Positions 5,951-27,018 of a DNA stretch of 64,000 nucleotides are shown here, in pieces. The notes under the pieces are model-generated. The model was given only the letters and a program-made list of their open reading frames with translations. It was not told the origin of the DNA and made no database searches. A program made the translations under genes and the position numbers. Source of the DNA: Patescibacteria group bacterium (GTDB lineage Bacteria > Patescibacteriota > Microgenomatia > Levybacterales > UBA12049); NCBI GenBank assembly GCA_023484045.1, contig JAMDAA010000022.1:4201-68200 (forward strand). Direction: 5' to 3'. The first letter of the stretch is position 1; the number at the start of each line of letters is the position of its first letter.

Positions 5951-5958
5951 AGATTTAT

Positions 5959-5991: not shown

Positions 5992-5998
5992 AGCGTAC

Positions 5999-11842: not shown

Positions 11843-11860
11843 ACAATCCGTTCCTTTATA

Positions 11861-12983: not shown

Positions 12984-13027
12984 TAATTTAGTTTAGCATA
13001 AAAGATACTACAATGTGTAGTACTAAT

Positions 13028-13672
13028 TTAGAGATGCGTTAAAATTGATTTTAAAAATTTGATCGACGGTAAAAAGGCAGGGGTATTTTTAAGGTAATGC
13101 CGATATTGAGGATATTTTTGTAAGACATCTTTTTCTTCCTTTCGGGCAAGCCTTATATACATGAAAGTTAAGATTGGTGCCATGATTAAGGTCGGAAGAG
13201 TTGGCCATTGCATTAAAAATCCGAGAATAATAATTATAAAACCGACATATTGTGGATGCCTTATGTATTTATAGGGCCCAGTCCTGGCGATAGTTTGGTT
13301 TTTTGTAGCCTGATAAAGTATGTTCCAGGACGCGCTGATTAAAATTAGTCCTCCAATAATTAACGCATAGCTTAAAATATGTAGGATGCTAAAATGTGGA
13401 TCACCTGTATTACCTAATAGATCTTCCCACAAATGCCCGGAATTATGGGAAAAATTTATCTGCGGAAACCTGTTCCCTGACAACGAAGAAAGTAGGTAGA
13501 TAGTGAGCGGAAAACCATACATCTCAGTAAACAAAGCAATAATAAAAGCAGAGAAGGCTCCAAATGACCGCCAATCAACACCTGTTTTAGGTTTAAAAGC
13601 ACCATAAGCAAACCAGAGAAATAATCCACTTAGTGCTATTGCTATAAACCAATTTCCGTATGCATATTCCAT
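13028..13672 (-). CDS. membrane methyltransferase of the ICMT/PEMT-like family
   Basis: 214 aa. TGPYKYIRHPQYVGFII matches the RHPxY.G motif of isoprenylcysteine carboxyl methyltransferase-like proteins. Confidence 0.55.
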   Translation of the reverse strand: MEYAYGNWFIAIALSGLFLWFAYGAFKPKTGVDWRSFGAFSAFIIALFTEMYGFPLTIYLLSSLSGNRFPQINFSHNSGHLWEDLLGNTGDPHFSILHILSYALIIGGLILISASWNILYQATKNQTIARTGPYKYIRHPQYVGFIIIILGFLMQWPTLPTLIMAPILTFMYIRLARKEEKDVLQKYPQYRHYLKNTPAFLPSIKFLKSILTHL

Positions 13673-13752
13673 AAGTTGATTTTCATCCTAAAAGGACAGA
13701 TTTTATTATAACAAATACTTACTACAATATGTAGTAATCAAAGCCTTGTAAA

Positions 13753-15165
13753 TTATGCGGGATTCTTTAAAGTTGGTAGTGTTACAATAACCGTAGTTCC
13801 TTTACCCATCTTACTATTTACATTTACTATTCCATTATGAGCTTTTATGATTCCTTGAGTTATCGCTAATCCTAATCCTGACCCTTTATTTGTATATAAC
13901 GTTACTCCCCTATAAAATGGTTCAAAAATATACGGTAAATCTTCTCGAGTAATACCGATACCATTGTCTTGTACTTTTACAATAACATTATTTTTATTAT
14001 GTAGAGTTATACGTATATAACCATGTTTAGGCGTAAATTTAATAGCATTATCGATAATGTTCAAAATAGCCCTGGCGAGCTTGTCTTTTTCTCCAAAAAG
14101 TTTAACTCCGCCGGTTATATCTCCGCTGATTGTAATATCCTTTGAAAGGGACATTTTTTTCGCTACATCCTGCAACTCCGCAATAAACTCGGAAAAGTCA
14201 AAGACCCTGCCTTGGACTTTAACATTTTCTGCTTTTGACCATGCCAGTTCGAGTATTTTATTGAACATTATTGAAGCTTTTTTTATGTCAATGAGCATTT
14301 CAGAAAATACTTTTTTATATTCTTTGGCCGATCTCTTCTTAGATAAAATTAGTTCGACACTACTTTGAAGAATTGCCAAAGGTGTTTTTAATTCATGAGT
14401 CACGTTAACAATAAATTGGTGTTCTCTTTTAAGCGCTTCTCTTAAGCGGTCGAGAAGTTCATTAAAAGTCTTTGTCAACTCTTCGATTTCATCTCCAGTG
14501 TGGGAATTTATAATTTGTTCTTCCAAATTCTCCATCTCAATTTTTTTCAATTTATTGGATAAAGCAGCCACTGGTTGCATACCAATATTGGCGAGGAAAT
14601 ATCCACCTAAAATAGTTAAAATGGACAAACCAAGGAATACGGCTCCCATAATAGTTAACAACCTATTTAAAGACATTTGAATAATATCTATCGGATGTGC
14701 GATGAGCACTACTCCATTAAATTTGTCATTTTTCTCGATGGGAGAAACTAAGAAGCGCATAGTCGAGCCATTTATATCCTGATCATTGAAAAATGGCTTT
14801 TTTGTATCCAAAGCAAGATTGAAAAGCTTTTTGAATAATTTGTTTTTAGGGTCGATCCCCACTGTGCCACTAATCGTTTGTCCCGAACTATCCATAATTA
14901 CTACAAGCATACCGGGGATCGCGCTAAATTCTTGCAAAAATCCCTGATCGGCAAGATATTGATGCATGCCAATATTTTGCTTTTTTACAATCTCGACGAC
15001 TTTACTTGCGTGAGAAGAAAGAATATTATCAGTGTAATTAAAAAGTGTCTGCTTTGTAATAATATAAAAACTACTAAAAATTATCGCCATGGATAAGTAA
15101 AGGGCGGATGTATACCAGAGGGTCATGCGGAATCTTAAACTTTTCCTATTCATGTGCTTTTGCAA
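13753..15165 (-). CDS. two-component sensor histidine kinase (no adjacent response regulator)
   Basis: 470 aa. Two TM helices flank a periplasmic domain. H-box NVTHELKTPLA. HATPase N and G boxes (DNAIKFT, DNGIGI, GSGLGLAI). Paralog of 20797-22206. Confidence 0.85.
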   Translation of the reverse strand: MQKHMNRKSLRFRMTLWYTSALYLSMAIIFSSFYIITKQTLFNYTDNILSSHASKVVEIVKKQNIGMHQYLADQGFLQEFSAIPGMLVVIMDSSGQTISGTVGIDPKNKLFKKLFNLALDTKKPFFNDQDINGSTMRFLVSPIEKNDKFNGVVLIAHPIDIIQMSLNRLLTIMGAVFLGLSILTILGGYFLANIGMQPVAALSNKLKKIEMENLEEQIINSHTGDEIEELTKTFNELLDRLREALKREHQFIVNVTHELKTPLAILQSSVELILSKKRSAKEYKKVFSEMLIDIKKASIMFNKILELAWSKAENVKVQGRVFDFSEFIAELQDVAKKMSLSKDITISGDITGGVKLFGEKDKLARAILNIIDNAIKFTPKHGYIRITLHNKNNVIVKVQDNGIGITREDLPYIFEPFYRGVTLYTNKGSGLGLAITQGIIKAHNGIVNVNSKMGKGTTVIVTLPTLKNPA

Positions 15166-15217
15166 GTATATATAACAAAGATTAAAATGTTATTAAGATT
15201 TTTATTGCATATTTTTA

Positions 15218-15745
15218 TTAGCATTGTTCGCTGACCTTACAAATATAATCTGTCAATTGCTGCTTATCTAAGAAGCCGTAAGCCGGAGGTTTTTCTACCC
15301 CTTTTGCGGTAAAAATAAATGTAGGGACACCGGAGATCTGATACTTCTTTGCGTCTTCAACGCAAGATTCCAACTCATACCACTCTCCATAAAAAAGATC
15401 CCCGTACTCCGGTAAAATCTGATCCAAAACTTTATTTTGGGTAACACAGTAGGGACACGTTTCGGATTCAAACAACTTAAACTTTAAGGAGGCGTCAGGG
15501 TTGCCGGCCTTTATATTAGGGCAGCTTTTTTCTCCGAGCACAATTTTCTTACTAAATTGCGCATTAACTACTCGGAGAGGCTTATCTGCCGCTTTCTCGA
15601 TTTGAGTAATATCTTGATTAGCCTTTTTAATGCCTAGATTAACAAAAACATTGAAACCAATAAATAATGTTACTAACACCACTAAAAATAACGGGGTCCT
15701 TTTAAAAATTTGTTGGTCAGTCCAAATAATTTTTGGTAAGCTCAT
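15218..15745 (-). CDS. membrane-anchored thioredoxin-like protein (CPYC active site)
   Basis: Real start is probably the Met at 15745; the longer ORF upstream overlaps the ccdA-like gene. ETCPYCV CxxC and cis-Pro GVPTFIF. Confidence 0.6.
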   Translation of the reverse strand: MSLPKIIWTDQQIFKRTPLFLVVLVTLFIGFNVFVNLGIKKANQDITQIEKAADKPLRVVNAQFSKKIVLGEKSCPNIKAGNPDASLKFKLFESETCPYCVTQNKVLDQILPEYGDLFYGEWYELESCVEDAKKYQISGVPTFIFTAKGVEKPPAYGFLDKQQLTDYICKVSEQC

Positions 15746-16419
15746 ATCGAAATTACCTGTAGCGCTAAATAGATTAAATAAATGCCAGCCAAAAGAATTA
15801 ACACTCCAGCGCTTTTTTGAATTTTCACCATATACTTTGCTAAAAAGTTGCGCATTGCGCTCTTCGATAAAGAAGATATAAGAGAAAATACGATCATAAG
15901 GCTCGACATCGCCAAAGCATAAACGGCAAAATTGATTATTCCTCCAAATATTCCTTCTTGAGCAAACGACTGGAAAATTACAAGCAGAAAAATTGGTAAA
16001 GTACATCCTAATGCCCCAAAGGCATAGGCTACACCGAAGAGGTAAAATCGTTTTCCTCCATTTGATTTGGTTTGGATACAAAGCGGTGGTTTGATGGCAA
16101 ATTCATAACCGAGCAATGTTGACGACCCCATAAATACAAGTAATCCACCAGTAAAAAGTTCGATCCAGGGAAATACTGGAGTAATAAGACGGCCGAAAAT
16201 GGTAACAATGATTCCGAAGGCAATATAAGCAGTTATTAGTCCCAGACTTGCCAGGCTGCCTGCTTTAAGCCCAAAAAGAAGTTGCTGTATCCGATTGCTA
16301 CCTCCTGTTTCGTGTTTAACACAGTAACCGACATACGCCGGGATTAAGGCAACACTGCACGGTGCAAAGAAAGCTTGCAGGCCCGCCAGAAATGAGAAGG
16401 AAACTAAAATTGGATTCAT
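15742..16419 (-). CDS. ccdA: CcdA/DsbD-family transmembrane thiol-disulfide transporter
   Basis: 225 aa. FFAPCSVALIPAYVGY in TM1 and a second Cys in ALGCTLPIF. Overlaps the downstream thioredoxin-like gene by 4 nt. Confidence 0.7.
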   Translation of the reverse strand: MNPILVSFSFLAGLQAFFAPCSVALIPAYVGYCVKHETGGSNRIQQLLFGLKAGSLASLGLITAYIAFGIIVTIFGRLITPVFPWIELFTGGLLVFMGSSTLLGYEFAIKPPLCIQTKSNGGKRFYLFGVAYAFGALGCTLPIFLLVIFQSFAQEGIFGGIINFAVYALAMSSLMIVFSLISSLSKSAMRNFLAKYMVKIQKSAGVLILLAGIYLIYLALQVISI

Positions 16420-16424
16420 CTTCT

Positions 16425-16742
16425 TTATTTGCCATTCTTTTTTGTAATATTTATACTTATGGAAAAAGGTTTATTCAAAGTGCCAGACGAGCTCATTTTC
16501 CACATCAGGAATTGATTGAATAAAAACCCTCCGATGATTATTGCTAGAAGGATCGCAGAAATGGATATTTTGGGATAGGAAATTTTAGCAGTTGGAACTT
16601 GCTTTGAAACCTTAAGTTTAGATATCTCCTCGTCTGAGATAAAAATTTTCTTAAAATTTCGAAAGAAAAAGAGGTAAATTATTCCTCCGAGTATTAAGGT
16701 CACACCTAAAAATAGGAAGAAATCGCTGTAATCGCTAATCAT
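16425..16742 (-). CDS. small membrane protein
   Basis: 105 aa, two TM helices. Confidence 0.3.
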   Translation of the reverse strand: MISDYSDFFLFLGVTLILGGIIYLFFFRNFKKIFISDEEISKLKVSKQVPTAKISYPKISISAILLAIIIGGFLFNQFLMWKMSSSGTLNKPFSISINITKKNGK

Positions 16743-17536
16743 TTTTTTAATCCGTGCATGCCATCTGAACCCGCCCCGCCGTGTGACTCGTGAGGTAATG
16801 CGCTTCCATTTCCGGTGGCTAACAGATAATCTTCAAGCATTCCTTTTGGATACCAAAGAGCATACCAGCGATGAGATTCACCAACAAGTTGCTCATCTGA
16901 ATATTTGTCACCATAATTTAAAATCATATAGCGGTAAAAGCCACGGACTGCCTTTGCGTGGGCGCAACCACAATTTTTATTCATTGTTACGTTGTTAGGT
17001 CCACCGCAGCAGTAGCTACAAGTCATCAGAAAAGTAATAAGTTTTTGGAACCTCGTCTCTTGTTCAGTTGGGAGCCTTATTGACGCTTCAAATGCTCCCC
17101 ATTTTTTTTGGGCGTTTACCGGATCGTCGAAAGAAATATCCTCGGGGGCATAGAACGGTTTACCCGTTGCCATCATCACTACCTTGGCATCAGAAAGCGC
17201 ATTTCCGCTATGGGGGTTAGCCATAACATCGGTAATTGTTGGCCATTCAACAAGTGAAGTAGTTTTTCCATCAGGGTTTACTTTTGGGGCAATAATTGTC
17301 TTAAAAGTATCGGTTTTCATACCTAAAAACGAAGCAATAAATCCTCCCGACGAAACCATCCCCATTGCCATTGCTACTCGAGTAATCATTAACTGATTAA
17401 ATAGAAAAAGAATTATTAAAAGCGGGATCAAAATTTCTTGAAGAGGTAAAATAATAACTGTTCTTGGCGTTTTAGTCACGGCCGTACGGCGGTTGATCGC
17501 TGGAATCATTTTTAACCTGTTTAATATATTTTTCAT
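16739..17536 (-). CDS. secreted Cys/Met/His-rich protein (PCYCGC-like motif), candidate metal-binding
   Basis: 265 aa with an N-terminal TM. MAMGMVSSGG, CSYCCGGPNN..NCGCAH, C-terminal HESHGGAGSDGMHG. Confidence 0.4.
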   Translation of the reverse strand: MKNILNRLKMIPAINRRTAVTKTPRTVIILPLQEILIPLLIILFLFNQLMITRVAMAMGMVSSGGFIASFLGMKTDTFKTIIAPKVNPDGKTTSLVEWPTITDVMANPHSGNALSDAKVVMMATGKPFYAPEDISFDDPVNAQKKWGAFEASIRLPTEQETRFQKLITFLMTCSYCCGGPNNVTMNKNCGCAHAKAVRGFYRYMILNYGDKYSDEQLVGESHRWYALWYPKGMLEDYLLATGNGSALPHESHGGAGSDGMHGLKK

Positions 17537-17548
17537 ATTTTTATATCT

Positions 17549-18835
17549 TCACTTTGTTGGATTAGGACTCGGCTTTGCAGGCCGAATTATTTGGTTATTA
17601 GTTAAATCTTTGTAAGTAATGTTTCCGAGCTGATTAAACCCTGTAAAAATATACCAACCGTCTGATCCAACTGTTCCTACACTTTTCCAGACATTTTTGA
17701 GATTTGTATACTGATCGGCTTCAGGAGATATTAAAATAGTCGGAACTTTGGTAATGCCATATTGCGCCAGCAAACTTTTTCCCTCCGTAGACGATATGTC
17801 TACCAAACGCTCTGAACGTAAAGCAACTCCGTACCCCTGGGTCAGAATTGGTTTTTGAATATCTTGTACCTTATAACAATCAGTACAACTTGAATCGGTA
17901 AGATAGATTAGATCAACAAGACCTACGATTTGTCCTTTTATTAAGTCTCGATACGGCAACGGAAGATTTCTAGCAATATAAGTCTTATCCTTTTCAACTG
18001 TACCAAAGTTTGGCCAATTACTTTTTAGGCTATCGTATAGATCAAATTCGGGTGAAAAGATAAAGGTCGGGATTTTAGTTATTTTATATTGGTTAATTGC
18101 ACTTTGACCATCTAAAGAGTTCCAGGCAAGCTCCTTTGTTTCCTTTACTTTAACACCCGCCTTTTTGAAATTTTCGATTATTGTTTTTAGGTCTACGCAT
18201 TGGGAACAAAATGAATCCGTGATCAGAGTAACTGTAACCTTTCCCATTTCTTGTCCGGTCCCCGTGTCGATAAATATAGGCGCTAATTTTGTAAATATAA
18301 AAGTATTGTTTTTAACCTCCCCGTTACTTTTAACAAAACCTTCTAAATTATTTTTAGTTACTTCACCCGTAATAAGATATGTCGGAACCTTTTTAATAGC
18401 AAACTGTTTAATAAAAGCTCTGGCTTCGGGTGAATCAAATACCTGGGTTTTCTCCCCTTCTACTTTAACGTTTAACTTCTTAAAACCGAAAACAGCATCG
18501 TCGACATTAAAACAATTCTTACAGTTAGGAGTGGTAATTTTAATAATTTTAATATTAGCAGGCCTTGCGGCTTCCTTTGCAGCAGCAATATTTTTATTAA
18601 TGACAGCGAGTGTCTTTGTAGAAACAAGCGCGCCGGCAATAGTTACTAAAAGAGTTATATATAAAATTATCTTCGGCCATGAAATATTAAGCCTCTTCCT
18701 ATTAGGAACAACATCCGACCTTATACTAGACACAACATCTTTTTTGTTCATAACATATAGACAGTCCGCTTTAACTTTAACAACCTCCAACCATTGATTG
18801 CGGTACATTGGCATTGCTTCCCGTACCAGTTCCAC
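17549..18835 (-). CDS. membrane-anchored protein with three tandem thioredoxin-like domains
   Basis: 428 aa. Three CxxC motifs (CKNC, CSQC, CTDC), each followed about 50 aa later by a K(V/I)PT cis-Pro motif. Confidence 0.55.
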   Translation of the reverse strand: MELVREAMPMYRNQWLEVVKVKADCLYVMNKKDVVSSIRSDVVPNRKRLNISWPKIILYITLLVTIAGALVSTKTLAVINKNIAAAKEAARPANIKIIKITTPNCKNCFNVDDAVFGFKKLNVKVEGEKTQVFDSPEARAFIKQFAIKKVPTYLITGEVTKNNLEGFVKSNGEVKNNTFIFTKLAPIFIDTGTGQEMGKVTVTLITDSFCSQCVDLKTIIENFKKAGVKVKETKELAWNSLDGQSAINQYKITKIPTFIFSPEFDLYDSLKSNWPNFGTVEKDKTYIARNLPLPYRDLIKGQIVGLVDLIYLTDSSCTDCYKVQDIQKPILTQGYGVALRSERLVDISSTEGKSLLAQYGITKVPTILISPEADQYTNLKNVWKSVGTVGSDGWYIFTGFNQLGNITYKDLTNNQIIRPAKPSPNPTK

Positions 18836-19052
18836 TATTTGTGGTTGTAGCAGCTGGAACAGTATTTACCGAAGCCGAGCTGGCTTTGGAACTTATACGC
18901 ACCAATTGGACGGTTTGAAAAATAGTAATTACGGCTATAAGTCCCAATACTACAATTTGTAGGTTAGGTTTTGGGACGCGCAATACTACATTATTTTCTT
19001 GACTTGGGTTTTGATGTACTGCGTTTGTTTTTAATCGTTGATTTTCTGTCAT
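18777..19052 (-). CDS. small TM protein with Ser/Thr/Gly-rich tail ending in Cys
   Basis: About 91 aa from the ATG. Strong upstream RBS AAAGGGGGTG. Overlaps the start of the downstream gene. Confidence 0.3.
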   Translation of the reverse strand: MTENQRLKTNAVHQNPSQENNVVLRVPKPNLQIVVLGLIAVITIFQTVQLVRISSKASSASVNTVPAATTTNSGTGTGSNANVPQSMVGGC

Positions 19053-19284
19053 AAGCACCCCCTTTCATTAGAAATAGTTTACGATTCGGCTTTGCCGGAG
19101 AGTAATTACTATTTCTTATGCCCTCCGAATAAACGCTCCTTGAGCCGCAGTAGAAATCTACTAAGGCAAAAGGTAAGTTATGGAGGGCTTTCTCATCTCT
19201 ACTACTTAGTGTAGTAGACTGCTTGTAATTTTGTCAATACCTTTAGTAAACTCAGTATTGTTTTTGACGTGAGGAATTGACCGG

Positions 19285-20367
19285 TTAGCGGTTAAGAAGT
19301 GGTGTTTGATATTTAAAAGCTTGTGTAGTAAGTAAGGGGCGGCTTACATTTTTGGGATCGTCGTCACACTTCTTTTCCGGTAAAAACAAATGGGCTGGGA
19401 TGTAATTTGTTGACTGCTCAAAATAAGGATGACATTGTTTGGAACAAGATTGATTATCTGAACACAGAAAATAAGTAGAGTCTGACTTTGAATCCATATG
19501 AAAGGCACTAACTGGTGTTTGTAACAAAAACCAACTAAAAAAAATGAATAAAAAAGTCGTTATAAAGCTTACTGATGAGAGTCTTAATCTATGTTTTGTT
19601 CCCGGATTTACTAAACGATTGATTCTGATTTCAAAATAATCAGGACCGGAAGCGTTAGAAACGGTAGAGAAATTGAGCTGGGGCGAGGCTAAGATCTTTT
19701 TAAGCGCACCGCGCAGGAAGGTAGAGTTTTGCTGGCGACTTATCGTCCATTGATCTGCTAATAATTCATTGACGGCCTCTATATTTTTATGGAGGTCGGC
19801 AAAGATCGGTAAAAAGAAAAACATCGAAGAAAACGTTTTTCCGATAAGTACCTTAACAGGATCTCGACTTAGCAGATGAGATTGTTCGTGAAGTAAAACT
19901 GCTTCTAATTCTTTATCCGTTAAGGATTGAACTAGACCTGTGGTAACCACAATATGTGGTGAAAAAATACCGCAACAAAAAGAAAATAAATTATTATCGT
20001 TAACCAAAATCACTTTATTTGTAAGACCTAATTTGTCTAAAACTTTTGCTAAGTATAAAGTTGTATTAACCCTATTCATAAGTAATTTTCTTATGAAGAT
20101 TTTCGTTTTAATAAGTTGCAATATGAAAGACAAAAGGCCTGTTCCCAAAACAACTCCGATTGCTAAAATAAACACATTAGGGAGCGAACGGGGAACTTCA
20201 AGCATAACATTAGAAATAAATTTCTGGCAGAGAAAGAGATTTTTTGAGGTAAATAAAGGAGACGCCTTATTTAAAAGAGCGATTGCAACCGAGCTGACGG
20301 TTAGCGCAGAGAAGATTAAAATATAAAAGCTATAGTTAATTCTTTTCATATTCAAGCAAAACGGCAA
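19285..20367 (-). CDS. BlaR1/MecR1-like M56 family membrane metalloprotease signal transducer with Cys-rich extracytoplasmic C-terminus
   Basis: 360 aa. HEQSHLLSRD (HExxH in the M56 context) after 4 TM helices. C-terminal domain CSDNQSCSKQCHPYF...KKCDDD. Confidence 0.75.
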   Translation of the reverse strand: MPFCLNMKRINYSFYILIFSALTVSSVAIALLNKASPLFTSKNLFLCQKFISNVMLEVPRSLPNVFILAIGVVLGTGLLSFILQLIKTKIFIRKLLMNRVNTTLYLAKVLDKLGLTNKVILVNDNNLFSFCCGIFSPHIVVTTGLVQSLTDKELEAVLLHEQSHLLSRDPVKVLIGKTFSSMFFFLPIFADLHKNIEAVNELLADQWTISRQQNSTFLRGALKKILASPQLNFSTVSNASGPDYFEIRINRLVNPGTKHRLRLSSVSFITTFLFIFFSWFLLQTPVSAFHMDSKSDSTYFLCSDNQSCSKQCHPYFEQSTNYIPAHLFLPEKKCDDDPKNVSRPLLTTQAFKYQTPLLNR

Positions 20368-20375
20368 ATTTTGGT

Positions 20376-20765
20376 TTAATCCTCATCTAATATCTTTAAC
20401 AACTGCTGCCGTTTCTTCGGACTAATTTTTTGAATTTCTTTTACGAAATGAGTTAATACCTCTTCGCCCAGAGTAGAAACGGCGGACGAGAAAATACCAT
20501 GAACAGCTTTGGCCATAAATTGGTCTTTAGTTCCTTTGGGTTTATATAAATAGCTTTGTCCACTAAGATACCTAACTAAAATACCTTTATTTGCAAGTCT
20601 TACCATTATAGTCATTACAGTTGTGTAAGCAATTCGTCGCCTTTTCTCTAAAATTTCAGTCACATCTTTAACAGAAACTGCTTTTTTTTGACTCCAGATA
20701 ATTTCCATTATCTTAGATTCTAGCTCTCCCAGGACTTTACCAGTAACCCCAGTTTTTTTGTTCAT
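20376..20765 (-). CDS. BlaI/MecI/CopY-family transcriptional repressor
   Basis: 129 aa. Winged-helix AYTTVMTIMVRLANKGIL typical of the penicillinase-repressor family. No C-terminal Cys cluster. Confidence 0.8.
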   Translation of the reverse strand: MNKKTGVTGKVLGELESKIMEIIWSQKKAVSVKDVTEILEKRRRIAYTTVMTIMVRLANKGILVRYLSGQSYLYKPKGTKDQFMAKAVHGIFSSAVSTLGEEVLTHFVKEIQKISPKKRQQLLKILDED

Positions 20766-20796
20766 ATTACTAACTATTGTAGTACTCGATTCCTAG

Positions 20797-22206
20797 TTAG
20801 TCAAATGGGTTGACGAGGGGTAAAGAAATTATAACGGAAGTACCTTTTCCGACTTTACTAACTATTTTAATCAGTCCTTTATGTGCCTGAATTATTCCCT
20901 GGGCGATTGCCAGGCCTAAGCCAGATCCTAATGTTTTAGTTGTTTTTGAGCCTCTGTAAAAACGTTCAAAAACATGAGGAAGTTCTTTTTCCGAAATACC
21001 TGCTCCCGTATCTTTGATCTCGAGAATCGCGCGTTTATTTCTTTTATAAAGCGCAATCGAGACCAAGCCCTTATTTGGAGTATATTTTATTGCGTTATCG
21101 ACAATATTTAAAATAGCGCGGGAAATTTTGTCTTCATCTCCTGTAATTTCCAAATTTGCTTCTATTTTTTCCTGCAATTTTATTTGTTTTTGCGATCCCA
21201 GTTTTAAAGCGATTTCCCTGATTTCATTGACGACATTAGACAAGTTGAAATACCGTTCTCCCAATTGCGCGTTTTCCGCCTCGAGCCAAGCTAAATCAAG
21301 TATGTTTTTAATTATCGTCGAAAGCCGGTTTGCGTCTACTAAAGTTTCTTCTAAAGCCCGTTTGTATTCATGCTCTGTTCTTTTTTTGGAAAGAACAAGC
21401 TCGATTTCGCTTCTTAGTGTTGCGACCGGAGTTTTAAGCTCGTGGGCAACATCGCCTATAAATTGCCTTTCCCTGTGAAACGCTTCTTGCATGCGACCCA
21501 AAAGATTATTAAAAGTGGTGGTTAGTTTCTCGATTTCATCCTCTGTTTTTGGATTATCGATTCTTTCGTCTAAATGTTCTGATGATATTTTTTCCATTCT
21601 GTTGCTGATATTGGATATCGGACGCATTATTTTACCGGCCAACAGTCTTCCTCCTAAAATAGTCGGTAAAATAAGGAGCAAAAAAACAATGCCAAGGGTA
21701 TTTAGCAACGAATTTAACGACTTTTGAATTGCGTCGATCGGATGGGCAACAAGAATTACTCCGGCAAGAGAATTGTTATATCGAACAGCTTGAGCGGTAA
21801 AACGCATCGGAGAATTTTTAATATCCTCGTTTGAGTAAACAGCTTGATTCGTGTGTTTTGCGCTCTCAAAAAGAGATTTGTAGAAATCATGCGGGTTTTC
21901 GGTAGTTAAGGAACTATTCACCGCATTGCCGTCTTTGTCCAGAAGCACCACAACCATTCCCGGAATTTGGCTAAATTCGGAGTACAGTTGTTGTTTTAGC
22001 ATCGCTTCGTGCATATTAACTCCTTGACGGGTTACTATTTCCGTAAGTTTCACTGCGTGTGTAGAAAGCTCTTTGTCGACCTGACTAAAAATAATTTGCC
22101 GTGTGACAAAATAAAAGCTCGAAAATATAAACGCGGTTGCTAAAAAAAGAGTTAAAGTATACCACAATAAAATTCTGAATCTGATGCTTTTCGTATTTAT
22201 AATCAT
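20797..22206 (-). CDS. two-component sensor histidine kinase
   Basis: 469 aa. H-box DVAHELKTPVA and HATPase boxes. Overlaps the upstream response-regulator gene by 4 nt. Confidence 0.85.
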   Translation of the reverse strand: MIINTKSIRFRILLWYTLTLFLATAFIFSSFYFVTRQIIFSQVDKELSTHAVKLTEIVTRQGVNMHEAMLKQQLYSEFSQIPGMVVVLLDKDGNAVNSSLTTENPHDFYKSLFESAKHTNQAVYSNEDIKNSPMRFTAQAVRYNNSLAGVILVAHPIDAIQKSLNSLLNTLGIVFLLLILPTILGGRLLAGKIMRPISNISNRMEKISSEHLDERIDNPKTEDEIEKLTTTFNNLLGRMQEAFHRERQFIGDVAHELKTPVATLRSEIELVLSKKRTEHEYKRALEETLVDANRLSTIIKNILDLAWLEAENAQLGERYFNLSNVVNEIREIALKLGSQKQIKLQEKIEANLEITGDEDKISRAILNIVDNAIKYTPNKGLVSIALYKRNKRAILEIKDTGAGISEKELPHVFERFYRGSKTTKTLGSGLGLAIAQGIIQAHKGLIKIVSKVGKGTSVIISLPLVNPFD

Positions 22207-22871
22207 TCGTTTATTCTGTATCCGACTCCGTGAATTGTTTGAATAAGTTTTACTTTAGTGCCTGAATCGATTTTTTTTCTAAGGGATGCGACGAAAACAT
22301 CAACGACATTACTCATCCCGTCAAAGTTGTAATCCCATACGTGTTCGATAATCATGGTTCTTGTAATAACTTCTCCTTTGTGGCGCAGTAAAAATTCCAA
22401 AATCGAAAACTCTTTTGGAGTTAGATTAATAATTTTTGTTCCGCGCTTTATGATATGTTTTAAAGGATCTGCTTCCAAATCTCTGGCTTTTAGTATGGGA
22501 GATGAATCTTTGTGGCTTCTTCTGATTAATGCGTGAATACGCGAACGAAACTCCAAAAAAGAAAATGGTTTAGTTATATAATCGTCGGCGCCGCTGTCCA
22601 GTCCCGCGACCTTATCTTCTGTTGTCGATTTTGCGGTTAGCATAAGAATCGGAATTTTTACGTTTTTATTCCTTAATTCCCTGCACACTTTAAGACCGTC
22701 AATTTTAGGAAGCATAATATCCAGAACAATCAAGTCGTATTGTTCCGACTCTCCTAAATATAACCCTTCTTCTCCGTCGAATGCCTGATCAATGGCAAAA
22801 CCGTCTTCTAGGAGCCCCTTTTTTATTATGTTTGACAGACGTCTTTCATCCTCGATCACTAAAATTCTCAT
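22203..22871 (-). CDS. OmpR-family response regulator (receiver plus winged helix)
   Basis: 222 aa. Receiver motifs (DLIVLDIMLP, Asp and Lys positions) and a C-terminal trans_reg_C pattern (VHGVGYR). Confidence 0.9.
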   Translation of the reverse strand: MRILVIEDERRLSNIIKKGLLEDGFAIDQAFDGEEGLYLGESEQYDLIVLDIMLPKIDGLKVCRELRNKNVKIPILMLTAKSTTEDKVAGLDSGADDYITKPFSFLEFRSRIHALIRRSHKDSSPILKARDLEADPLKHIIKRGTKIINLTPKEFSILEFLLRHKGEVITRTMIIEHVWDYNFDGMSNVVDVFVASLRKKIDSGTKVKLIQTIHGVGYRINE

Positions 22872-22989
22872 AAATATAATGATAATTATATCACAAAAAG
22901 TTAAAAAATTATGAAGATTTAATTAAAACGAAATTTAAAACACCGCACCCGCCGCCTGTTTTTGGAGGTTGTTCGATAATTTCTGTATT

Positions 22990-23814
22990 TTATTTTTCAT
23001 TATCTCCTTTGTATTTTAATAATTTGTAAAAAATAAACAGAATTACGGCAAAAACCGTTAAATCGATAATCGGATTTTGAAAATATTTGGCGATTCCAAA
23101 AACTGTCAGACGAATTGTCTGACTGTATGATTCCATCTGATTCATTTGAATCTTCCCCTGATAATTAAAAACTGCGATTAATACTCCTGTTATAAAAAAG
23201 ATAACGGCTCCCAAAAACTTTAAGACTTTATATATTTTTTGTCTGTTTTTTCCTGCAATCTTTGCCGTTGCCTTTTGATAAAACATCGACATAATAAACA
23301 AAGGCATAACAATACCGGTTACATACGATAGCGAAACTATAAGCGCCTGGAAAAGTGTTGGAGAAAGAGAAGTTAGTGTTACAGCCGCAAACAAAACGGG
23401 CGCACAGCAGGCAGACGTCAGTCCCGACATTAATCCTAAGCCGAATACACTCACAGTACTAATTTTTTTGTTATCAGGAGCGGATACGTGAAAAAACTGG
23501 GGGAGGTGAAAAACCGGCTTTAGAGTCATTGTCCCCATTAGAATCATTACAAAAGCTCCGATGTAATAGACTTGCAAATGATAGGTGTCGAGGAAAAAAA
23601 TCGCTGATCTTATGCCTAAAGCGATCGGTACAAGCACAAAAGCGAGTCCCAAGGCAAATATAAGCGTATAGTACATAACCCTGTTCTTTTCTTTGAAAAT
23701 GGTTCCTAAATACGACGGGAAAAGAAAAGTAATGCAGCAAGGAGCAAACAGGGCTAAAACCCCGGCTAAAAATGACGCGGTTAAAGAAATTCCGAATAAA
23801 AAATTTGAATCCAT
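22990..23814 (-). CDS. CcdA/DsbD-family transmembrane thiol-disulfide transporter (third paralog)
   Basis: 274 aa. FAPCCITFLFPSY and SACCAPVLFAAV motifs. Confidence 0.65.
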   Translation of the reverse strand: MDSNFLFGISLTASFLAGVLALFAPCCITFLFPSYLGTIFKEKNRVMYYTLIFALGLAFVLVPIALGIRSAIFFLDTYHLQVYYIGAFVMILMGTMTLKPVFHLPQFFHVSAPDNKKISTVSVFGLGLMSGLTSACCAPVLFAAVTLTSLSPTLFQALIVSLSYVTGIVMPLFIMSMFYQKATAKIAGKNRQKIYKVLKFLGAVIFFITGVLIAVFNYQGKIQMNQMESYSQTIRLTVFGIAKYFQNPIIDLTVFAVILFIFYKLLKYKGDNEK

Positions 23815-23816
23815 AT

Positions 23817-24314
23817 TTATTTGACGTTTGCTTTGATGCTAAAAACAAGTTTTTGATTTAGCGGATCATTAGTCGTTACATAAACTTCGCGTTCAACAAA
23901 TCCATACACAGGCATTGTAGCCGGTCTATAAATCAATCTAATAGTAGCTGTGTCACCAGGAACAATTTCTGTGACATACCCACTTTGTGAGTGCATGCCG
24001 TATTCTTTACTCGTAAAATCTTTATAGATAATTTGTCCGGCGGTACAACCGCAACTGGAATTAATATTAAGAATTTGCAAAGGTTTGCTTCCGGTATTTT
24101 TTAAAAAAAAATCTTTTTGTTTGATGTCAGAAACCTTAATATTGCCAAAATCGAAAAAATTTACTGCAGTTTCTGCTTTCGGGCGATTATTTTCTTTAAT
24201 AGAATATGTTGTTGTATTAGGTACTGGTTTTTGCCCCGATATCATGAGAAACGACAATGCGACAACAAGAACAATAAAACCGATCAAACCAAAAATAATT
24301 GTTTTTACAGACAT
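23817..24314 (-). CDS. secreted DUF1573-like protein
   Basis: 165 aa. FDFGNI...F.LKNTGSKPLQILNINSSCGCT matches the DUF1573 signature. Confidence 0.5.
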   Translation of the reverse strand: MSVKTIIFGLIGFIVLVVALSFLMISGQKPVPNTTTYSIKENNRPKAETAVNFFDFGNIKVSDIKQKDFFLKNTGSKPLQILNINSSCGCTAGQIIYKDFTSKEYGMHSQSGYVTEIVPGDTATIRLIYRPATMPVYGFVEREVYVTTNDPLNQKLVFSIKANVK

Positions 24315-24433
24315 TTTATTGAAATATTACACGGGAGTGGATTAAGATTTTGTGAAGAAGATGAAATTAGGGTATGTTTTATTGTATAATACTCCTCGTG
24401 AAAAAAAAGCGCAAAAAAAAGTATAATAAATTC

Positions 24434-25309
24434 ATGCTCAAGTTAAGGATTGGATCGGTTCTATTTTTTGTCTTGTTTATTATTCTTGTTTTGGAAAATT
24501 TTTATATATATTCGCCCAAAAAAATCACACGTAAAAACAGCGTGCGTCGCGTTGTTGCGTCTGCAAATATTATTCCAACCCCGACTGTTACCCCGACCGT
24601 AATCAAAAAGGCAGAAGTTACTCCAACTCCGGCGTATTACGGTTTTTGTTTGCGGGTTCCTGTTTTAATGTATCACCACGTTGAACCGATGGCGGTCGCT
24701 AAAGAGAAAGGTGACACATTATTTGCCGTTGACAGTGGAATTTTTGAGGGGCAAATGGCATATCTTAATTCGGCAGGATACACGACGATTCCGGCGAAAC
24801 AATTAATCGAAGCGCTTCGAAATCATTCAGGGCTTCCAGGTAAAAGTGTTGTTGTGACTCTCGACGATGGGTACAGTGATGCTTATCAATACGCGTACCC
24901 GATCGCACAGAGATACCGTATTATTTTGAATTTAGCAATTCCGACCGGTCTTATTAGCGGGGAAAGATACATGAATTGGGGCCAAATCGAGGAGATGTCG
25001 CGAAGCGGAATCGTAAATTTTATCGATCACACGTGGTCGCATTATTCTGTTAATCGCGGACCGCTCGAAAAAATTAAATACGAAATCGAGACGGCTAAAA
25101 CCCAGCTCGAGCAGCACACTGGCCAAAAAATTGATGTTTTTGTGTATCCGTATGGTTCATCTAGCCCGACATCGATTAATGTTTTAGAACAAGACGGTTT
25201 TATCGGTGCATTTTCGACTATTCCCGGAACTTACCAATGTGATTCATTTATTTTAAATCTTCACCGGACAAGAGTCGGCAACGCTCCCCTTTCGGCCTAC
25301 GGGTTGTAA
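24434..25309 (+). CDS. polysaccharide deacetylase (NodB-homology domain), membrane-anchored
   Basis: Motifs VLMYHHV, VVTLDDGYSD, HTWSH. Start taken at the ATG at 24434 after an A-rich leader. Confidence 0.75.
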   Translation: MLKLRIGSVLFFVLFIILVLENFYIYSPKKITRKNSVRRVVASANIIPTPTVTPTVIKKAEVTPTPAYYGFCLRVPVLMYHHVEPMAVAKEKGDTLFAVDSGIFEGQMAYLNSAGYTTIPAKQLIEALRNHSGLPGKSVVVTLDDGYSDAYQYAYPIAQRYRIILNLAIPTGLISGERYMNWGQIEEMSRSGIVNFIDHTWSHYSVNRGPLEKIKYEIETAKTQLEQHTGQKIDVFVYPYGSSSPTSINVLEQDGFIGAFSTIPGTYQCDSFILNLHRTRVGNAPLSAYGL

Positions 25310-25408: not shown

Positions 25409-26092
25409 TTAACCATTTACTTCTTCCAAAGTAAGTTCTTTTAGTGCATATTCGGGGTTTTCTTTAAAATCTTCGACAAAGTTTTGATACGAAAAAATAT
25501 CTGACTTTGCTGTATTTTTTGATTTTTTAAAATAAGATGAAATTTCATCGATTTTTATCCAATCGGCGGTTTTACTTTTAAGATAATAGGGGTAACTCGA
25601 AAATTGGACATAGTCAAATTTTGAACTCTTTAATTTCATTGGGTTTCTATGAATATAGGAAGATAAATATAGATTTTGTTCTTCGGTTTCTATAAGAGCT
25701 GCTTTATAAACACTTTCGAACAGTGTTCCAATTCTTTTGTATTTATTATTGTAATACCGAACAAAACATGTCAAAACTCTTCTCGTTAATTTTTGTATAG
25801 CCTCTTTTGTATATTGTTTAACTTGTAAATGAAAGTGATTTGGCATTAATGTGAAAGACAAAAGATCAATCTCGCGATTCAAATTTAAATTATTTATTTT
25901 ATAAAGAAGTTTGGGCGACAAGGGTTTATCCTTAAGAAGATTTTGTGGCGTATCTAAATAGAGCTTTAGATAATGGAGGAAAACCGTGCAGTCTTTTTCA
26001 TCTATGAAAATTTCTTTCTTATCGATTCCCCTGTTATAAATATGATAATAACCATTTTCGACATACGTTTTAAGTGTGTTTTTACCCGGCAT
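25409..26092 (-). CDS. Y1 HUH transposase (IS200/IS605 TnpA or REP-associated RAYT-like)
   Basis: 227 aa. HUH motif MPNHFHLQV and catalytic-Tyr motif SSYIHRNPMK. Confidence 0.65.
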   Translation of the reverse strand: MPGKNTLKTYVENGYYHIYNRGIDKKEIFIDEKDCTVFLHYLKLYLDTPQNLLKDKPLSPKLLYKINNLNLNREIDLLSFTLMPNHFHLQVKQYTKEAIQKLTRRVLTCFVRYYNNKYKRIGTLFESVYKAALIETEEQNLYLSSYIHRNPMKLKSSKFDYVQFSSYPYYLKSKTADWIKIDEISSYFKKSKNTAKSDIFSYQNFVEDFKENPEYALKELTLEEVNG

Positions 26093-26214: not shown

Positions 26215-27018
26215 GTGTATTTTTTAAGTATGCCCAATTCTTCTTATAAGACAATTCTTCACATCGACTTCGATTCATCCTTTGCCAGTTGTGGACAACA
26301 ATATAATCCCAAGCTTCAAAAGAAACCAATCGGAGTCACTGCGGTAAACGGTAGAACTTGTATTATCGCTTCAAGCCGCGAGGCAAAAATTTTAGGGATA
26401 AAAACGGGAATGCGAACTTTTGAAGCTAAGAAAATCTGTCCGTCGGTAACATTCGTGCCGGCAAATTTTGTCAGATATTGGGAAGTTAGTAAAAAGTTCA
26501 TAAACATCTGCAAAGATTATTCGCCGCTGGTCGAAGTTTTCTCGATCGACGAATTATTTATCGACGCAACCTCAACCCTTCATCTTTTCGGTGGCGTATA
26601 TGGAATTATTTCAAAAATTAAAAAACGGATTAAAGCAGAAATCGGTGGATATATCACGGCCAAAATTCGCATCGGGACTCGATAAGCCAAACGGAATCGT
26701 CGAAATTGAAAAAAAGACGTCAGGATAGATTCTTTAATCTCAGAAGATTTTTACTTAAACACAAATTATATACGGCAAATTCATATTTATGTTTCAAATC
26801 TTGAAGACAAGAATAATTTAATGACTTCTCTTTTCGATTCTGATCAAAAGAAAGACAGGGTTACAAAAGTAGTCGATAAAATTAACGAAAAATTCGGAGA
26901 TCACACGATAAGAAACGGATTTCTACTCTATAGTGAAAAATTGACTACGACCCAGAACGGTTTTGGGTCTGATAAATACGAAAGAGTTAAGCTTACAGGC
27001 TCGGCTACTCGCGTTTGA
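26215..27018 (+). pseudogene. dinB: degraded Y-family DNA polymerase IV gene
   Basis: N-terminal 156 aa (ILHIDFDSSFASCG.., SIDELFID) ends at a frameshift in an A4 tract near 26663. The +1 frame continues FASGLDKPNGIVEI. About 100 aa are missing before the C-terminal fragment at 26821-27018. Confidence 0.65.

Follow-up and report, generated by a model that had tools for sequence, protein, structure and literature searches.

A candidate BlaI–M56 proteolytic switch with conserved cysteines and linked thiol and copper genes in Patescibacteria

Within a 64-kb window of patescibacterial DNA (the whole stretch that was analyzed), a BlaI/CopY-type repressor gene is paired on the minus strand with a gene for a BlaR1-like metalloprotease, as the first-pass annotation had claimed, and the two genes are adjacent in all 21 loci compared (the window and 20 related ones). 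We tentatively interpret the pair as a two-gene switch of BlaI/BlaR1-type proteolytic derepression for envelope thiol/copper defence, which would be triggered by copper or thiol oxidation at cysteines, a reading that we consider quite possible, though short of probable. Judging from the compared sequences, the blaI–M56 switch is common in uncultivated Patescibacteria of the Microgenomates type.

BlaIR-type switches form a large and mostly uncharacterized class of envelope sensors, and very few of those devoid of a penicillin-binding domain have a known signal (PMC13492132). PetRP is the one metal-responsive BlaIR example, and its copper-binding site is not known. The family considered here offers a compact, strongly conserved four-cysteine candidate site, at the two positions that communicate in BlaR1, as well as a sharply defined candidate operator and a small coherent regulon, so that the question of what is sensed could be tested directly in E. 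coli. It also provides a first regulatory handle on surface-thiol protection and copper handling in ultra-small uncultivated Patescibacteria, and flags several conserved proteins without family assignment, namely the SMVGGC protein, the CcmH-like CSYCCG protein, and Cys-Cys membrane proteins.

The repressor–protease pair and its cysteines

The two genes and the relevant protease elements are as follows.

20376–20765, minus strand: BlaI-family winged-helix repressor, 129 aa (Pfam Penicillinase_R, PF03965)
19285–20349, minus strand: M56/BlaR1-type membrane zinc protease, 354 aa (Pfam M56 and M48; start taken from homologues)
20227–20229, minus strand: C41 in the TM1–TM2 loop (FLCQKF, from the translation)
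19876–19890, minus strand: zinc-binding/catalytic motif HEQSH (H154, E155, H158; from the translation)
19288–19503, minus strand: predicted extracytoplasmic C-terminal tail, aa 283–354, about 70 aa, predicted to be disordered
19429–19464, minus strand: tail motif C296-x5-C302-x3-C306-H307, just outside the last TM segment, translation CSDNQSCSKQCH

The repressor covers the Penicillinase_R profile in full (positions 1–115 of 115, E = 3.8e-27), scoring 95.4 bits against a Pfam cut-off of 22.6. Its closest relative in the PDB is BlaI of M. tuberculosis (2g9w, E = 3.5e-13), other structural relatives being 1sd4 and 1okr. The residues H106-F107 (20445–20450, within LTHFV encoded at 20442–20456) align with the cleavage site N101-F102 of S. 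aureus BlaI (1sd4), which is part of the dimerization region; H-F is kept at this position in at least 90% of the 120 repressor homologues, and M. tuberculosis BlaI likewise has H-F at the scissile-equivalent position. The best NCBIfam match is CopY_TcrY (TIGR02698), with 57.3 bits, under the equivalog cut-off of 121.95. The C-terminal CxCx4CxC (or CxC) metal site typical of CopY is absent, in agreement with the first-pass annotation: the protein contains no cysteine at all, and 96 of the 120 homologues are Cys-free.

The open reading frame 19285–20367 matches Peptidase_M56 (46.7 bits, cut-off 31) and Peptidase_M48 in Pfam. Comparison with the N-termini of some 60 homologues places the true start of the protease at ATG 20349 (MKRINYSF); it also ruled out TTG 20367 (a 360-aa ORF) and showed the 306-aa NCBI product to be too short. 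Three hydrophobic segments (aa 8–26, 59–77, and 257–280) were obtained by hydropathy analysis, in agreement with the helices of an AlphaFold2 model built on 70 sequences. The third zinc ligand is E195, located within NELLAD; H154, E155, H158, E195, and D199 are invariant in 262–264 of the 265 family members, and the zinc-site residues align with H201EXXH and E242 of BlaR1 (BlaR1 residues as in PMC9834060). Searched against the PDB, the family profile aligns with residues 103–347 of BlaR1 (8EXP/8EXS; TM3 to TM4) with E = 1e-11, and BlaR1 is also the best Foldseek match of the model (E = 4e-6). The protease departs from the four-TM, N-out topology of BlaR1, having three TM segments and an alignment that begins at BlaR1 TM3. 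From this alignment the gluzincin domain is predicted to be cytoplasmic, and the TM1–TM2 loop and the tail extracytoplasmic, the latter in accord with the original assignment. The claim that the C-terminal region is not penicillin-binding also stands: the transpeptidase domain PF00905 has no match in any of the 70 aligned family members, and the protease reaches 33 bits with blaR1_generic, for which the cut-off is 400.

Four cysteines are thus candidates for exposure at the cell surface, one in the loop and three in the tail, and all four are found in 164 of 218 family members. The C41 loop is topologically equivalent to EL1 of BlaR1, the loop ahead of the helix that runs into the protease domain; the role of EL1 is described in PMC9834060. 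In the alignment column of C41, cysteine occurs in 234 of the 240 members that have a residue there, and position 49 of the same loop is Met in the majority of the family. Of 110 close homologues, 90 have the tail signature C-x4-6-C-x3-C, as do 78 of the 126 sequences representing 50%-identity clusters; this exceeds chance as far as the sequences tell, and the exact C-x3-C spacing is kept across very divergent tails. His follows the third tail cysteine in 50 of 90 members (56%), and an extra tail cysteine (EKKCDD) is conserved solely in a closer subgroup of homologues. Approximately one-quarter of the family members have an incomplete set of the four cysteines, and the tail motif is deleted in a few. 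The four-Cys M56 family is apparently restricted to Patescibacteria; distant plasmid-borne M56/BlaI pairs occur in metal islands and have EL1-equivalent loops rich in His, Cys, or Met.

Residues 283–354 have pLDDT values below 50 in the AlphaFold2 model, and both the tail and the C41 loop are predicted to be disordered. The Cys-rich C-terminal domain described in the first-pass annotation therefore survives as a conserved cysteine motif but not as a folded domain, and in place of a compact sensor domain there is a short disordered motif together with a loop cysteine. Given the CcmH/CcdA/ResA-like neighbours, C-x3-C-H was considered as a variant haem-binding motif; this was dropped because of the limited conservation of His and because these lineages are generally held to be without c-type cytochromes. 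A further cysteine, C125 (edge strand FSFC, beside the active site on the predicted cytoplasmic side), is Cys in 250 of 265 family members, whereas the equivalent residue is T or Y in the plasmid homologues and W in BlaR1, making C125 family-specific.

Candidate operators and the genes behind them

A scan of the 64-kb window with a positional weight matrix yielded just four sites above the threshold, all of them versions of the 17-bp dyad TACTAC-N5-GTAGTA, which is the likely operator of this repressor on sequence grounds. Exact dyads number three against 0.02 expected. The sites, for which no strand is assigned, are listed below.

20768–20784: O1, TACTAaC-TATT-GTAGTA (one mismatch), ending 2 nt before the blaI ATG
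19200–19216: O2, TACTAC-N5-GTAGTA (exact), 5′ of the small-protein/thioredoxin operon
13720–13736: O3, exact dyad, 48 nt 5′ of the ICMT/PEMT-like methyltransferase gene
13006–13022: O4, exact dyad, 23 nt 5′ of the SCCAH membrane-protein gene

Three of the four dyads overlap a predicted −10 box, and dyads fall on two of the best promoter-like sites of the minus strand. O1 overlaps the −10 box of the predicted promoter TTGACT-17-TACAAT (20776–20804), and its position is held in 13 of the 20 related loci. O2 overlaps that of TTGACA-18-TACACT (19208–19237), and nearly all related loci have an equivalent dyad before the small-gene homologue or after the M56 gene. The O4 equivalent precedes the SCCAH homologue in eight related loci (L001–L006; L022). 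Altogether, 36 sites were found in 12 loci, almost all of them 0–30 nt before a gene start and on the M56 strand, and nine metagenome loci contain 19 further dyads; the predicted operator layout is conserved over the 21 loci.

The dyad differs from the TACA/TGTA type that the first-pass annotation had suggested looking for upstream of nearby operons: the classical BlaI/CopY (cop) box TACAnnTGTA has zero matches in the window and was ruled out as the operator. The 6-N5-6 geometry is shared with a BlaI-family operator of C. thermocellum (PMC8457756), and the PetR box GAC-N5-GTC, compared with TAC-N5-GTA at the dyad centre here, has the same 3-bp core plus N5 arrangement (bioRxiv 10.1101/2020.07.31.226407). 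A second dyad, AGTAGA-TT-TCTACT, sits in the 19059–19284 spacer; it was set aside because the spacer is short in related loci (about 50–110 nt), the extra sequence being specific to the window. An Rfam scan of the whole window detected four tRNAs only; nothing in the 142-nt stretch separating O2 from the small gene was recognized as a leader RNA.

The genes that follow O2, O3, and O4 are the following.

18777–19058, minus strand: single-pass membrane protein with the C-terminus SMVGGC, first gene of the main target operon
17549–18835, minus strand: membrane-anchored protein with three thioredoxin-like modules (CKNC, CSQC, CTDC; Pfam Thioredoxin_2, Thioredoxin_3, and Thioredoxin)
16739–17536, minus strand: conserved Cys-rich protein (CSYCCG...CGCAH) with a CcmH-like helical module and a His-rich C-terminus
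16425–16742, minus strand: small membrane protein of the O2 gene string
15742–16419, minus strand: CcdA/DsbD-like membrane protein of the O2 gene string
15218–16081, minus strand: thioredoxin-like protein (C-terminal part of the ORF) of the O2 gene string
13028–13672, minus strand: ICMT/PEMT-family membrane methyltransferase, O3 target (Pfam ICMT and PEMT)
9522–12983, minus strand: O4 operon as a whole
12513–12983, minus strand: SCCAH membrane protein, lead gene of the O4 operon
12070–12516, minus strand: secreted His-His protein, O4 operon
11210–11842, minus strand: redoxin, O4 operon
10189–11067, minus strand: DsbD_TM protein with Cys-Cys pairs, O4 operon
9522–10205, minus strand: redoxin, O4 operon

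The operator-linked genes thus encode mostly thioredoxin-like, redoxin, CcdA/DsbD-like, and CcmH-like proteins, and neither the window nor the related loci contain a beta-lactamase or PBP gene in the operator-linked regulon. The gene of the small protein is present in 18 of 21 loci, its SMVGGC C-terminus being invariant, and the gene with three thioredoxin modules in 17 of 21. NCBIfam and Pfam returned nothing for the small SMVGGC protein, the Cys-rich protein, hyp_16425, hyp_15742, and hyp_12513, and the NCBIfam matches of the ICMT-like gene are weak.

Copper genes and the adjacent two-component pair

The copper genes of the window, none of which has an operator, and the two-component genes are listed here.

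134–2821, minus strand: CopA P1B ATPase
3044–4864, minus strand: HMA–DsbD_2–cupredoxin gene
5945–6268, plus strand: CsoR
6376–8658, plus strand: CopB-like P1B ATPase
22203–22871, minus strand: heavy-metal-type response regulator (TIGR01387, 253 bits, below the cut-off)
20797–22206, minus strand: histidine kinase (TIGR01386, 253 bits, below the cut-off)

Two P1B ATPases, CsoR, the DsbD_2–cupredoxin–HMA gene, and the redoxin and DsbD_TM genes were all confirmed as the neighbours that had been named earlier. Co-occurrence of the M56 variant with copper genes, which the first-pass annotation had suggested examining, was also recovered: 13 of the 21 non-redundant loci have a P1B ATPase, CsoR, multicopper oxidase, or DsbD_2–cupredoxin gene no more than 10 kb away. 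Dyads precede a DsbD_2–cupredoxin gene plus a CopZ-like HMA gene in L007 and a Met/His-rich protein gene in L001 and L002; in L039, blaI and a divergent HMA gene have the blaI dyad in common. In the window, the matrix scan placed no dyad before CopA, CopB, CsoR, or the DsbD_2–cupredoxin gene. The proposed link of the pair to copper and thiol genes is accordingly upheld by the conserved operator and by co-location, but the operators of the window stand before thiol-oxidoreductase and Cys-Cys operons rather than before CopA, CopB, or CsoR.

Signal, competing readings, and related systems

According to the scheme that we favour, the repressor would bind the dyads and shut the promoters of blaI–M56, of the SMVGGC/three-thioredoxin/CcmH-like operon, of the ICMT-like gene, and of the Cys-Cys/redoxin/CcdA-like operon. 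An extracytoplasmic signal would be sensed via C41 in the EL1-equivalent loop and via C296, C302, and C306 in the tail; its likeliest form would be the binding of Cu(I) or another thiophilic metal, which in practice may be indistinguishable from copper-driven thiol oxidation. As in BlaR1, the TM helix between the loop and the protease domain would relay the signal, and the protease would cut the repressor near H106-F107, freeing the extracytoplasmic thiol-reducing/metal-handling system as well as the switch itself. The copper efflux ATPases of the window would be left to CsoR and the CopRS-like two-component system. It is possible, though doubtful, that the four cysteines constitute a cell-surface ligand site of the protease that responds to Cu(I) or to thiol oxidation and drives a Patescibacteria-specific regulon led by the membrane-tethered SMVGGC peptide, on which the co-regulated ICMT-like methyltransferase possibly acts. 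If so, the four-Cys site would give the non-beta-lactam BlaIR systems their first defined sensing element, and the SMVGGC-led regulon would be a previously undescribed envelope thiol/metal buffering system.

For copper as the signal speak the 13 loci with copper genes and the behaviour of PetP, which is without a sensor domain and degrades PetR only upon copper addition (bioRxiv 10.1101/2020.07.31.226407). Against it count the CsoR and CopS-like kinases already present in the island, which leave less need for a third copper sensor, the lack of a window operator before CopA, CopB, CsoR, and the DsbD_2–cupredoxin gene, the incomplete cysteine set of about one-quarter of the members, the variable His, and the disorder of tail and loop. 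The regulon, dominated by thiol:disulfide functions, fits a redox signal equally well. With the same machinery and regulon, the protease may then respond to the extracytoplasmic thiol/disulfide state rather than to metal binding: oxidized cysteines (loop–tail and C-x3-C disulfides) would activate it, and the induced CcdA/thioredoxin/CcmH-like pathway would re-reduce them in a feedback loop. An even number of conserved outward cysteines suits two disulfides, the variable residue after the third cysteine speaks against a fixed Cys3His metal site, and the copper sensors already in the island point the same way. We nonetheless consider this version somewhat unlikely in view of the strong co-location with copper genes, the placement of dyads, at some loci, ahead of HMA, cupredoxin, and Met-rich genes, and the fact that the sole characterized sensor-less BlaR-type protease is copper-activated; moreover, copper itself oxidizes thiols, so that the redox version may not separate from the favoured one.

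Less likely still, the cysteines would be structural or serve biogenesis, and the protease would answer another envelope cue (such as a peptide, lipid, or misfolded exported protein, or contact with the SMVGGC protein) or sense via the cytoplasmic C125. Most M56 C-termini are short, unassignable, and disordered, with unknown ligands (PMC13492132), and both the family-specific conservation of C125 and the orthologues wholly devoid of the tail motif are in keeping with such a role. The C-x3-C spacing retained over divergent tails, the near-universal C41, and the metal or thiol nature of nearly every regulated gene argue against this reading.

It is very unlikely that the M56 protein is not a sensor at all and that it degrades the repressor either constitutively or at the command of the neighbouring heavy-metal-type two-component system, which would then be the real input. 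The response regulator and kinase genes are located immediately 5′ of blaI in the window, with 31 bp from the kinase stop to the blaI ATG, but they are not beside blaI in the related loci, being found within 10 kb only in L001, downstream there; judged by this comparison, the pair lies outside the conserved module. Control by the pair was dropped as a general mechanism because it is not conserved beside blaI, which in addition has its own predicted promoter and operator and keeps its M56 neighbour in every locus. A classical beta-lactam sensor whose penicillin-binding domain has degenerated, suggested by nothing but the family names Peptidase_M56 and Penicillinase_R, has a negligible probability, being refuted by the domain tests, by a disordered tail of about 70 aa compared with about 250 aa for the sensor domain, and by a regulon free of beta-lactamase and PBP genes.

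Returning to the metal- or thiol-triggered switch, the first-pass annotation regarded sensing by a BlaR1-type protease as an unusual arrangement, a view that precedents contradict. In PetRP, a copper-activated BlaR-type protease degrades a BlaI/CopY-type repressor without Cys ligands (bioRxiv 10.1101/2020.07.31.226407), and about 6% of M56 proteins have a transpeptidase domain (PMC13492132). Since PetRP is known and most M56 proteins are without a penicillin-binding domain, the switch is a variant rather than a new kind, plausibly a new variant of the copper-responsive cyanobacterial PetR/PetP. In Synechocystis sp. PCC 6803 (Slr0240/Slr0241), as here, a regulator without CopY ligands is encoded directly 5′ of an M48/M56 protease without a penicillin-binding domain, and candidate metal ligands sit in the outward-facing loop ahead of the helix through which the chain reaches the protease domain. 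The present system also shows the genomic association with copper genes expected of PetRP-type switches; the copper-dependent degradation of the regulator known for PetRP is proposed here by analogy. PetP differs by its published description, with four predicted TM segments, no tail, and two Met residues as proposed ligands, whereas the protease considered here has three TM segments, a tail with three cysteines, and a loop cysteine. PetRP controls petE and petJ together with two small genes, which makes it a cofactor switch, in contrast to the envelope thiol-oxidoreductase/metal-handling operons of the present system.

With BlaR1/BlaI and MecR1/MecI of Staphylococcus and Bacillus, the pair shares a cytoplasm-facing M56 gluzincin domain (HEXXH...E), the repressor fold with H-F aligned to N101-F102, the order of repressor and protease genes, and an autoregulatory dyad overlapping the promoter. 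It differs in that the protease is without a transpeptidase-like sensor and has one N-terminal TM helix fewer, the operator is not TACAnnTGTA, and no beta-lactamase or PBP2a target is present. CopY/TcrY/CopR of Firmicutes belong to the same PF03965 family and are likewise associated with copper genes, CopY_TcrY being the best NCBIfam match, but the repressor considered here has neither CxCx4CxC nor any other cysteine, scores below the cut-off, and has no cop box; CopY itself senses Cu(I) without a protease partner. CenIR of C. difficile and BlaI/BlaR of M. tuberculosis (Rv1846c/Rv1845c), the latter providing the closest relative of known structure for the repressor, resemble the present system in a short disordered or absent M56 C-terminus and in a regulon that is not beta-lactamase-related, with an unknown signal (PMC13492132). 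Neither of them shows a conserved cysteine signature or an association with metal or thiol genes; cell-wall proteins are the targets of CenIR, and the M. tuberculosis system has been connected with ATP synthase, energy metabolism, and blaC.

The regulated genes, comprising CcdA/DsbD-like conduits, TlpA/ResA-type thioredoxin folds, and a CcmH-like module, resemble ScsABCD and the CcdA–ResA/TlpA–CcmH systems, which are effectors and not a switch. No Scs system is known to be under BlaIR-type control. Scs proteins are reported to bind Cu(I) and to protect against copper (PMC8900818).

The repressor–protease pair and its family

The first-pass annotation described a BlaI repressor accompanied by an HEQSH protease with a Cys-bearing segment, and this observation is correct, since both ORFs and both motifs were located in the window, which has a low GC content (35–43% in 2-kb windows). 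The DNA belongs to a Daviesbacteria-like genome of Patescibacteria, and both proteins are 100% identical to NCBI entries of a Patescibacteria group bacterium.

Features of the pair
20376–20765, minus strand: BlaI-family repressor, 129 aa; Pfam Penicillinase_R, whole profile, E 3.8e-27
19285–20367, minus strand: protease ORF, beginning 8 bases downstream of the repressor gene; Peptidase_M56 and Peptidase_M48 matches
19876–19890, minus strand: HEQSH of the protease
19429–19464, minus strand: CSDNQSCSKQCH in the protease tail

The N-termini of approximately 60 homologues place the protease (M56) start at ATG 20349 (MKRINYSF...), giving 354 aa; the public annotation (306 aa) begins at an internal Met and is missing TM1 and the following loop with the conserved C41. 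The family comprises 284 representative clusters at E <= 1e-30, and its named members are all Patescibacteria. A family profile (70 members) was aligned with the S. aureus BlaR1 cryo-EM sequence over residues 103–347 (TM3, the gluzincin domain, and TM4), with H154/E155/H158 corresponding to H201EXXH of BlaR1 and E195 to E242. The AlphaFold2 model has a confident core (mean pLDDT 72), and its closest structural match in PDB is BlaR1 (E 4e-6). Three TM segments were predicted by hydropathy (aa 8–26, 59–77, and 257–280); since BlaR1 has its protease domain in the cytoplasm (PMC9834060), the M56 N-terminus is predicted to be inside, and the loop 28–57 and the tail 283–354 outside. The family membership, topology, and intact catalytic residues predicted from these sequence comparisons are considered firm.

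The tail stands where BlaR1 has its beta-lactam sensor domain; it is only about 70 aa long and has pLDDT <50, and none of the 70 family members searched had a transpeptidase match. A degenerate penicillin-binding domain is thus ruled out, and the earlier proposal that the C-terminal part is not penicillin-binding holds. The repressor has no cysteine, as do 96 of 120 homologues, and therefore lacks the CopY CxCx4CxC site, as the annotation had noted; its CopY_TcrY equivalog score is below the cut-off. Among solved structures, its nearest relative is BlaI of M. tuberculosis (2g9w, E 3.5e-13). H106-F107 aligns with the N101-F102 cleavage site of S. aureus BlaI, and H-F is kept in at least 90% of the 120 homologues.

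Predicted operators and the putative regulon

Reading of the intergenic regions revealed a TACTAC-N5-GTAGTA dyad, three exact copies of which were observed in the window (13006–13022, 13720–13736, and 19200–19216) versus 0.02 expected. A fourth dyad (20768–20784), with one mismatch, is located 2 bases ahead of the blaI ATG; a weight matrix built from all sites found only these four in 64 kb. The 6-N5-6 geometry is shared with the operator reported for C. thermocellum BlaI (PMC8457756), and the center TAC-N5-GTA parallels the PetR box GAC-N5-GTC. Two of the dyads coincide with the two best minus-strand promoter-like sites within 12000–24500.

Promoter-like sites overlapping the dyads
20776–20804, minus strand: blaI promoter, TTGACT-17-TACAAT; −10 box inside dyad 20768–20784
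Minus strand: promoter of the next operon, starting with a small-protein gene, TTGACA-18-TACACT; −10 box inside dyad 19200–19216
Overlapping 13720–13736: weaker site, TTTACA-17-TATTGT; −10 box inside the dyad

The blaI promoter ends approximately 10 nt ahead of the ATG (20765), leaving no space for a Shine-Dalgarno sequence, and therefore the blaI mRNA is predicted to be leaderless or nearly so. The −35 box of this promoter shares bases with the stop codon that ends the histidine-kinase gene upstream. The dyad also lies 0–3 nt ahead of the blaI ATG in most related loci.

Eight genome loci from Daviesbacteria, WWE3, and other Patescibacteria (M56 identity 43–69%) share the gene order blaI, M56, small protein, 3xTrx protein, and Cys-rich protein, followed farther along by the SCCAH protein, His-His protein, redoxin, CcdA-like protein, and redoxin. 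The dyad occupies the same three positions in nearly all of them, and three more distant loci, obtained by exact protein look-up, demonstrate the same behavior. Together with the window, these 12 loci yielded 36 sites, most of them 0–30 nt ahead of a gene start on the M56 strand; nine further non-redundant metagenome loci added 19 sites with the same pattern. The steadiest targets are blaI and the small membrane protein.

Putative regulon
Unit 1: blaI-M56
Unit behind dyad 19200–19216, minus strand: small protein, 3xTrx protein, Cys-rich CcmH-like protein
Unit 3, 13028–13672, minus strand: ICMT/PEMT-type methyltransferase with its own operator 13720–13736
Unit 4: SCCAH membrane protein, secreted GGHH protein, two redoxins, DsbD_TM protein with two Cys-Cys pairs

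The predicted operators, three of which overlap promoter-like sites, and the regulon predicted from them are regarded as firm from sequence. The regulon resembles a system that reduces thiols and handles soft metals outside the cytoplasm; parts of it can be compared with CcdA-ResA/TlpA-CcmH and with the Scs proteins, which protect against copper.

The small protein (18777–19058, minus strand) crosses the membrane once; its linker is rich in Ser/Thr/Gly, and its C-terminus, VP(Q/E)SMVGGC-stop, is invariant. It has no family match; homologues were found in related loci L001–L004, L006, L008–L010, and others, and in 18 of 21 loci its gene comes directly after the operator that is conserved best. 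Its terminal Cys could be a tethered metal/thiol ligand or a modification site. The ICMT/PEMT-family methyltransferase gene belongs to the same regulon as this Cys-ending protein; eukaryotic ICMT methylates a C-terminal prenyl-cysteine. Vicinal Cys pairs (FAPCC, TCCAP) replace the single TM Cys in the CcdA/DsbD-like proteins at 10189–11067 and 22990–23814 (minus strand), and the SCCAH-bearing protein (12513–12983, minus strand) has four TM segments. In these pairs, the proteins may resemble MerT and MerC, which are mercury/soft-metal transporters.

Association with copper and other metal genes

A BlaI operator near the metal genes, suggested by the first-pass annotation, was found only in part: its TACA/TGTA form is absent (no TACAnnTGTA in the 64-kb window), the TACTAC-N5-GTAGTA dyad is present, and the weight-matrix scan of the window detected no operator ahead of CopA, HMA-DsbD_2-cupredoxin, CsoR, or the CopB-like ATPase. 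These copper genes have their own CsoR and are located 10.6–19 kb from the pair. The anticipated co-occurrence of such pairs with copper genes was observed across loci: 13 of 21 non-redundant loci have at least one gene for a P1B ATPase, CsoR, a multicopper oxidase, or DsbD_2-cupredoxin no farther than 10 kb from the pair, which we estimate to be far above chance for genomes of about 1 Mb. Among individual relatives, L007 has a dyad immediately ahead of a DsbD_2-cupredoxin gene, behind which comes a CopZ-like HMA gene; L001 and L002 have one ahead of a gene for a Met/His-rich secreted protein; and in L039 the blaI dyad is shared with a divergent HMA gene. In L011, CsoR is two genes upstream of blaI.

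Distant plasmid M56/BlaI pairs are also found within metal islands. On a Salmonella IncC plasmid (L012, 6144–13215), and likewise on Shewanella IncC plasmids, all of them conjugative, the pair leads a TolC-RND adaptor-CusA/CzcA efflux operon, and M56 carries a His-rich outward loop, FVHWHHIDIFSFDSWH, equivalent to EL1; this looks like an uncharacterized metal-responsive BlaIR system of Gram-negative bacteria. The Priestia pair adjoins CsoR-CopZ-CopA, and its M56 loop reads MCCNSH. In the distant relative L010 (11091–13291), the genes after blaI-M56 encode an ArsR-type regulator, a MerA/Pyr_redox_dim-type pyridine-nucleotide-disulfide oxidoreductase, and a MerR regulator, and thus the module may serve thiophilic metals besides copper in some lineages.

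A heavy-metal-type RR/HK pair stands directly upstream of blaI in the window, which contains two paralogous kinases of this type (one at 13753–15165, the other within the RR/HK stretch 20797–22871, minus strand; TIGR01386, 212 and 253 bits, below the cut-off) and only one RR. L001 has one RR-HK pair at the place of the orphan kinase, which suggests that local duplication or rearrangement put the pair ahead of blaI. An IS200-like Y1 transposase (25409–26092, minus strand) adjoins a truncated impB/umuC-like ORF (26215–26685, plus strand) a few kb outside the metal/thiol island, on its upstream (high-coordinate) side.

Protease cysteines and the candidate signal

A C-x4-6-C-x3-C motif just past the last TM segment was found in 90 of 110 close homologues whose tail is intact; a His follows the third Cys in only 56% of cases. 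Among 126 representatives of 50%-identity clusters, with far more divergent tails, the motif is kept in 78, the C-x3-C spacing being exact. C41 (FLCQKF) is present in 234 of the 240 members having a residue at this loop column. Its loop corresponds to EL1, because the helix that comes next aligns with alpha-3 of BlaR1; in BlaR1, EL1 docks into the sensor domain, and its displacement reaches the protease via alpha-3 (PMC9834060).

PetP of Synechocystis is an M48/M56 protease that has no sensor domain; in both cyanobacterial and E. coli extracts, it breaks down the BlaI/CopY-type PetR, and does so only with copper; two Met in the TM2-TM3 loop were proposed as ligands, the site being unproven (bioRxiv 10.1101/2020.07.31.226407; PMC7896320). 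The idea of metal sensing moved from a CopY-like repressor to a BlaR1-type protease, which the first-pass annotation regarded as unusual, is therefore not new. In a 2026 survey, only about 6% of M56 proteins had a transpeptidase domain, the commonest architecture being the M56 domain followed by a short C-terminus that could not be assigned (PMC13492132). Given this precedent and this proportion, the pair represents a variation on a known type of system; the Patescibacteria-wide family, four-Cys signature, operator, and regulon appear to be undescribed in the searched literature.

In the proposed mechanism, the repressor would bind the dyads, and M56 would cut it at H-F upon a signal perceived through the cysteines. 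Our favored candidate for this signal, put forward tentatively, is the binding or action of copper, or of a different thiophilic metal, at the four outward-facing Cys. All four are present in 164 of 218 full-length members; one or more is absent in about one-fourth, and the tail motif is wholly absent in a few, which counts against any Cys-based model. The main rival, a pure thiol-redox signal, would use the same cysteines and seems less likely to us, although the two may be one physical event, since thiols are oxidized by copper.

A further Cys faces the cytoplasm: C125, next to the active site in the edge strand FSFC, is present in 250 of 265 members, and is characteristic of this family, being absent from BlaR1 and from the plasmid-borne M56 proteins. 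The C125-C126 codons (19972–19977, minus strand) fall in the substrate-binding edge strand near the zinc site, and C125 might serve as a fourth ligand of the zinc or as a cytoplasmic position sensitive to metal or redox state.
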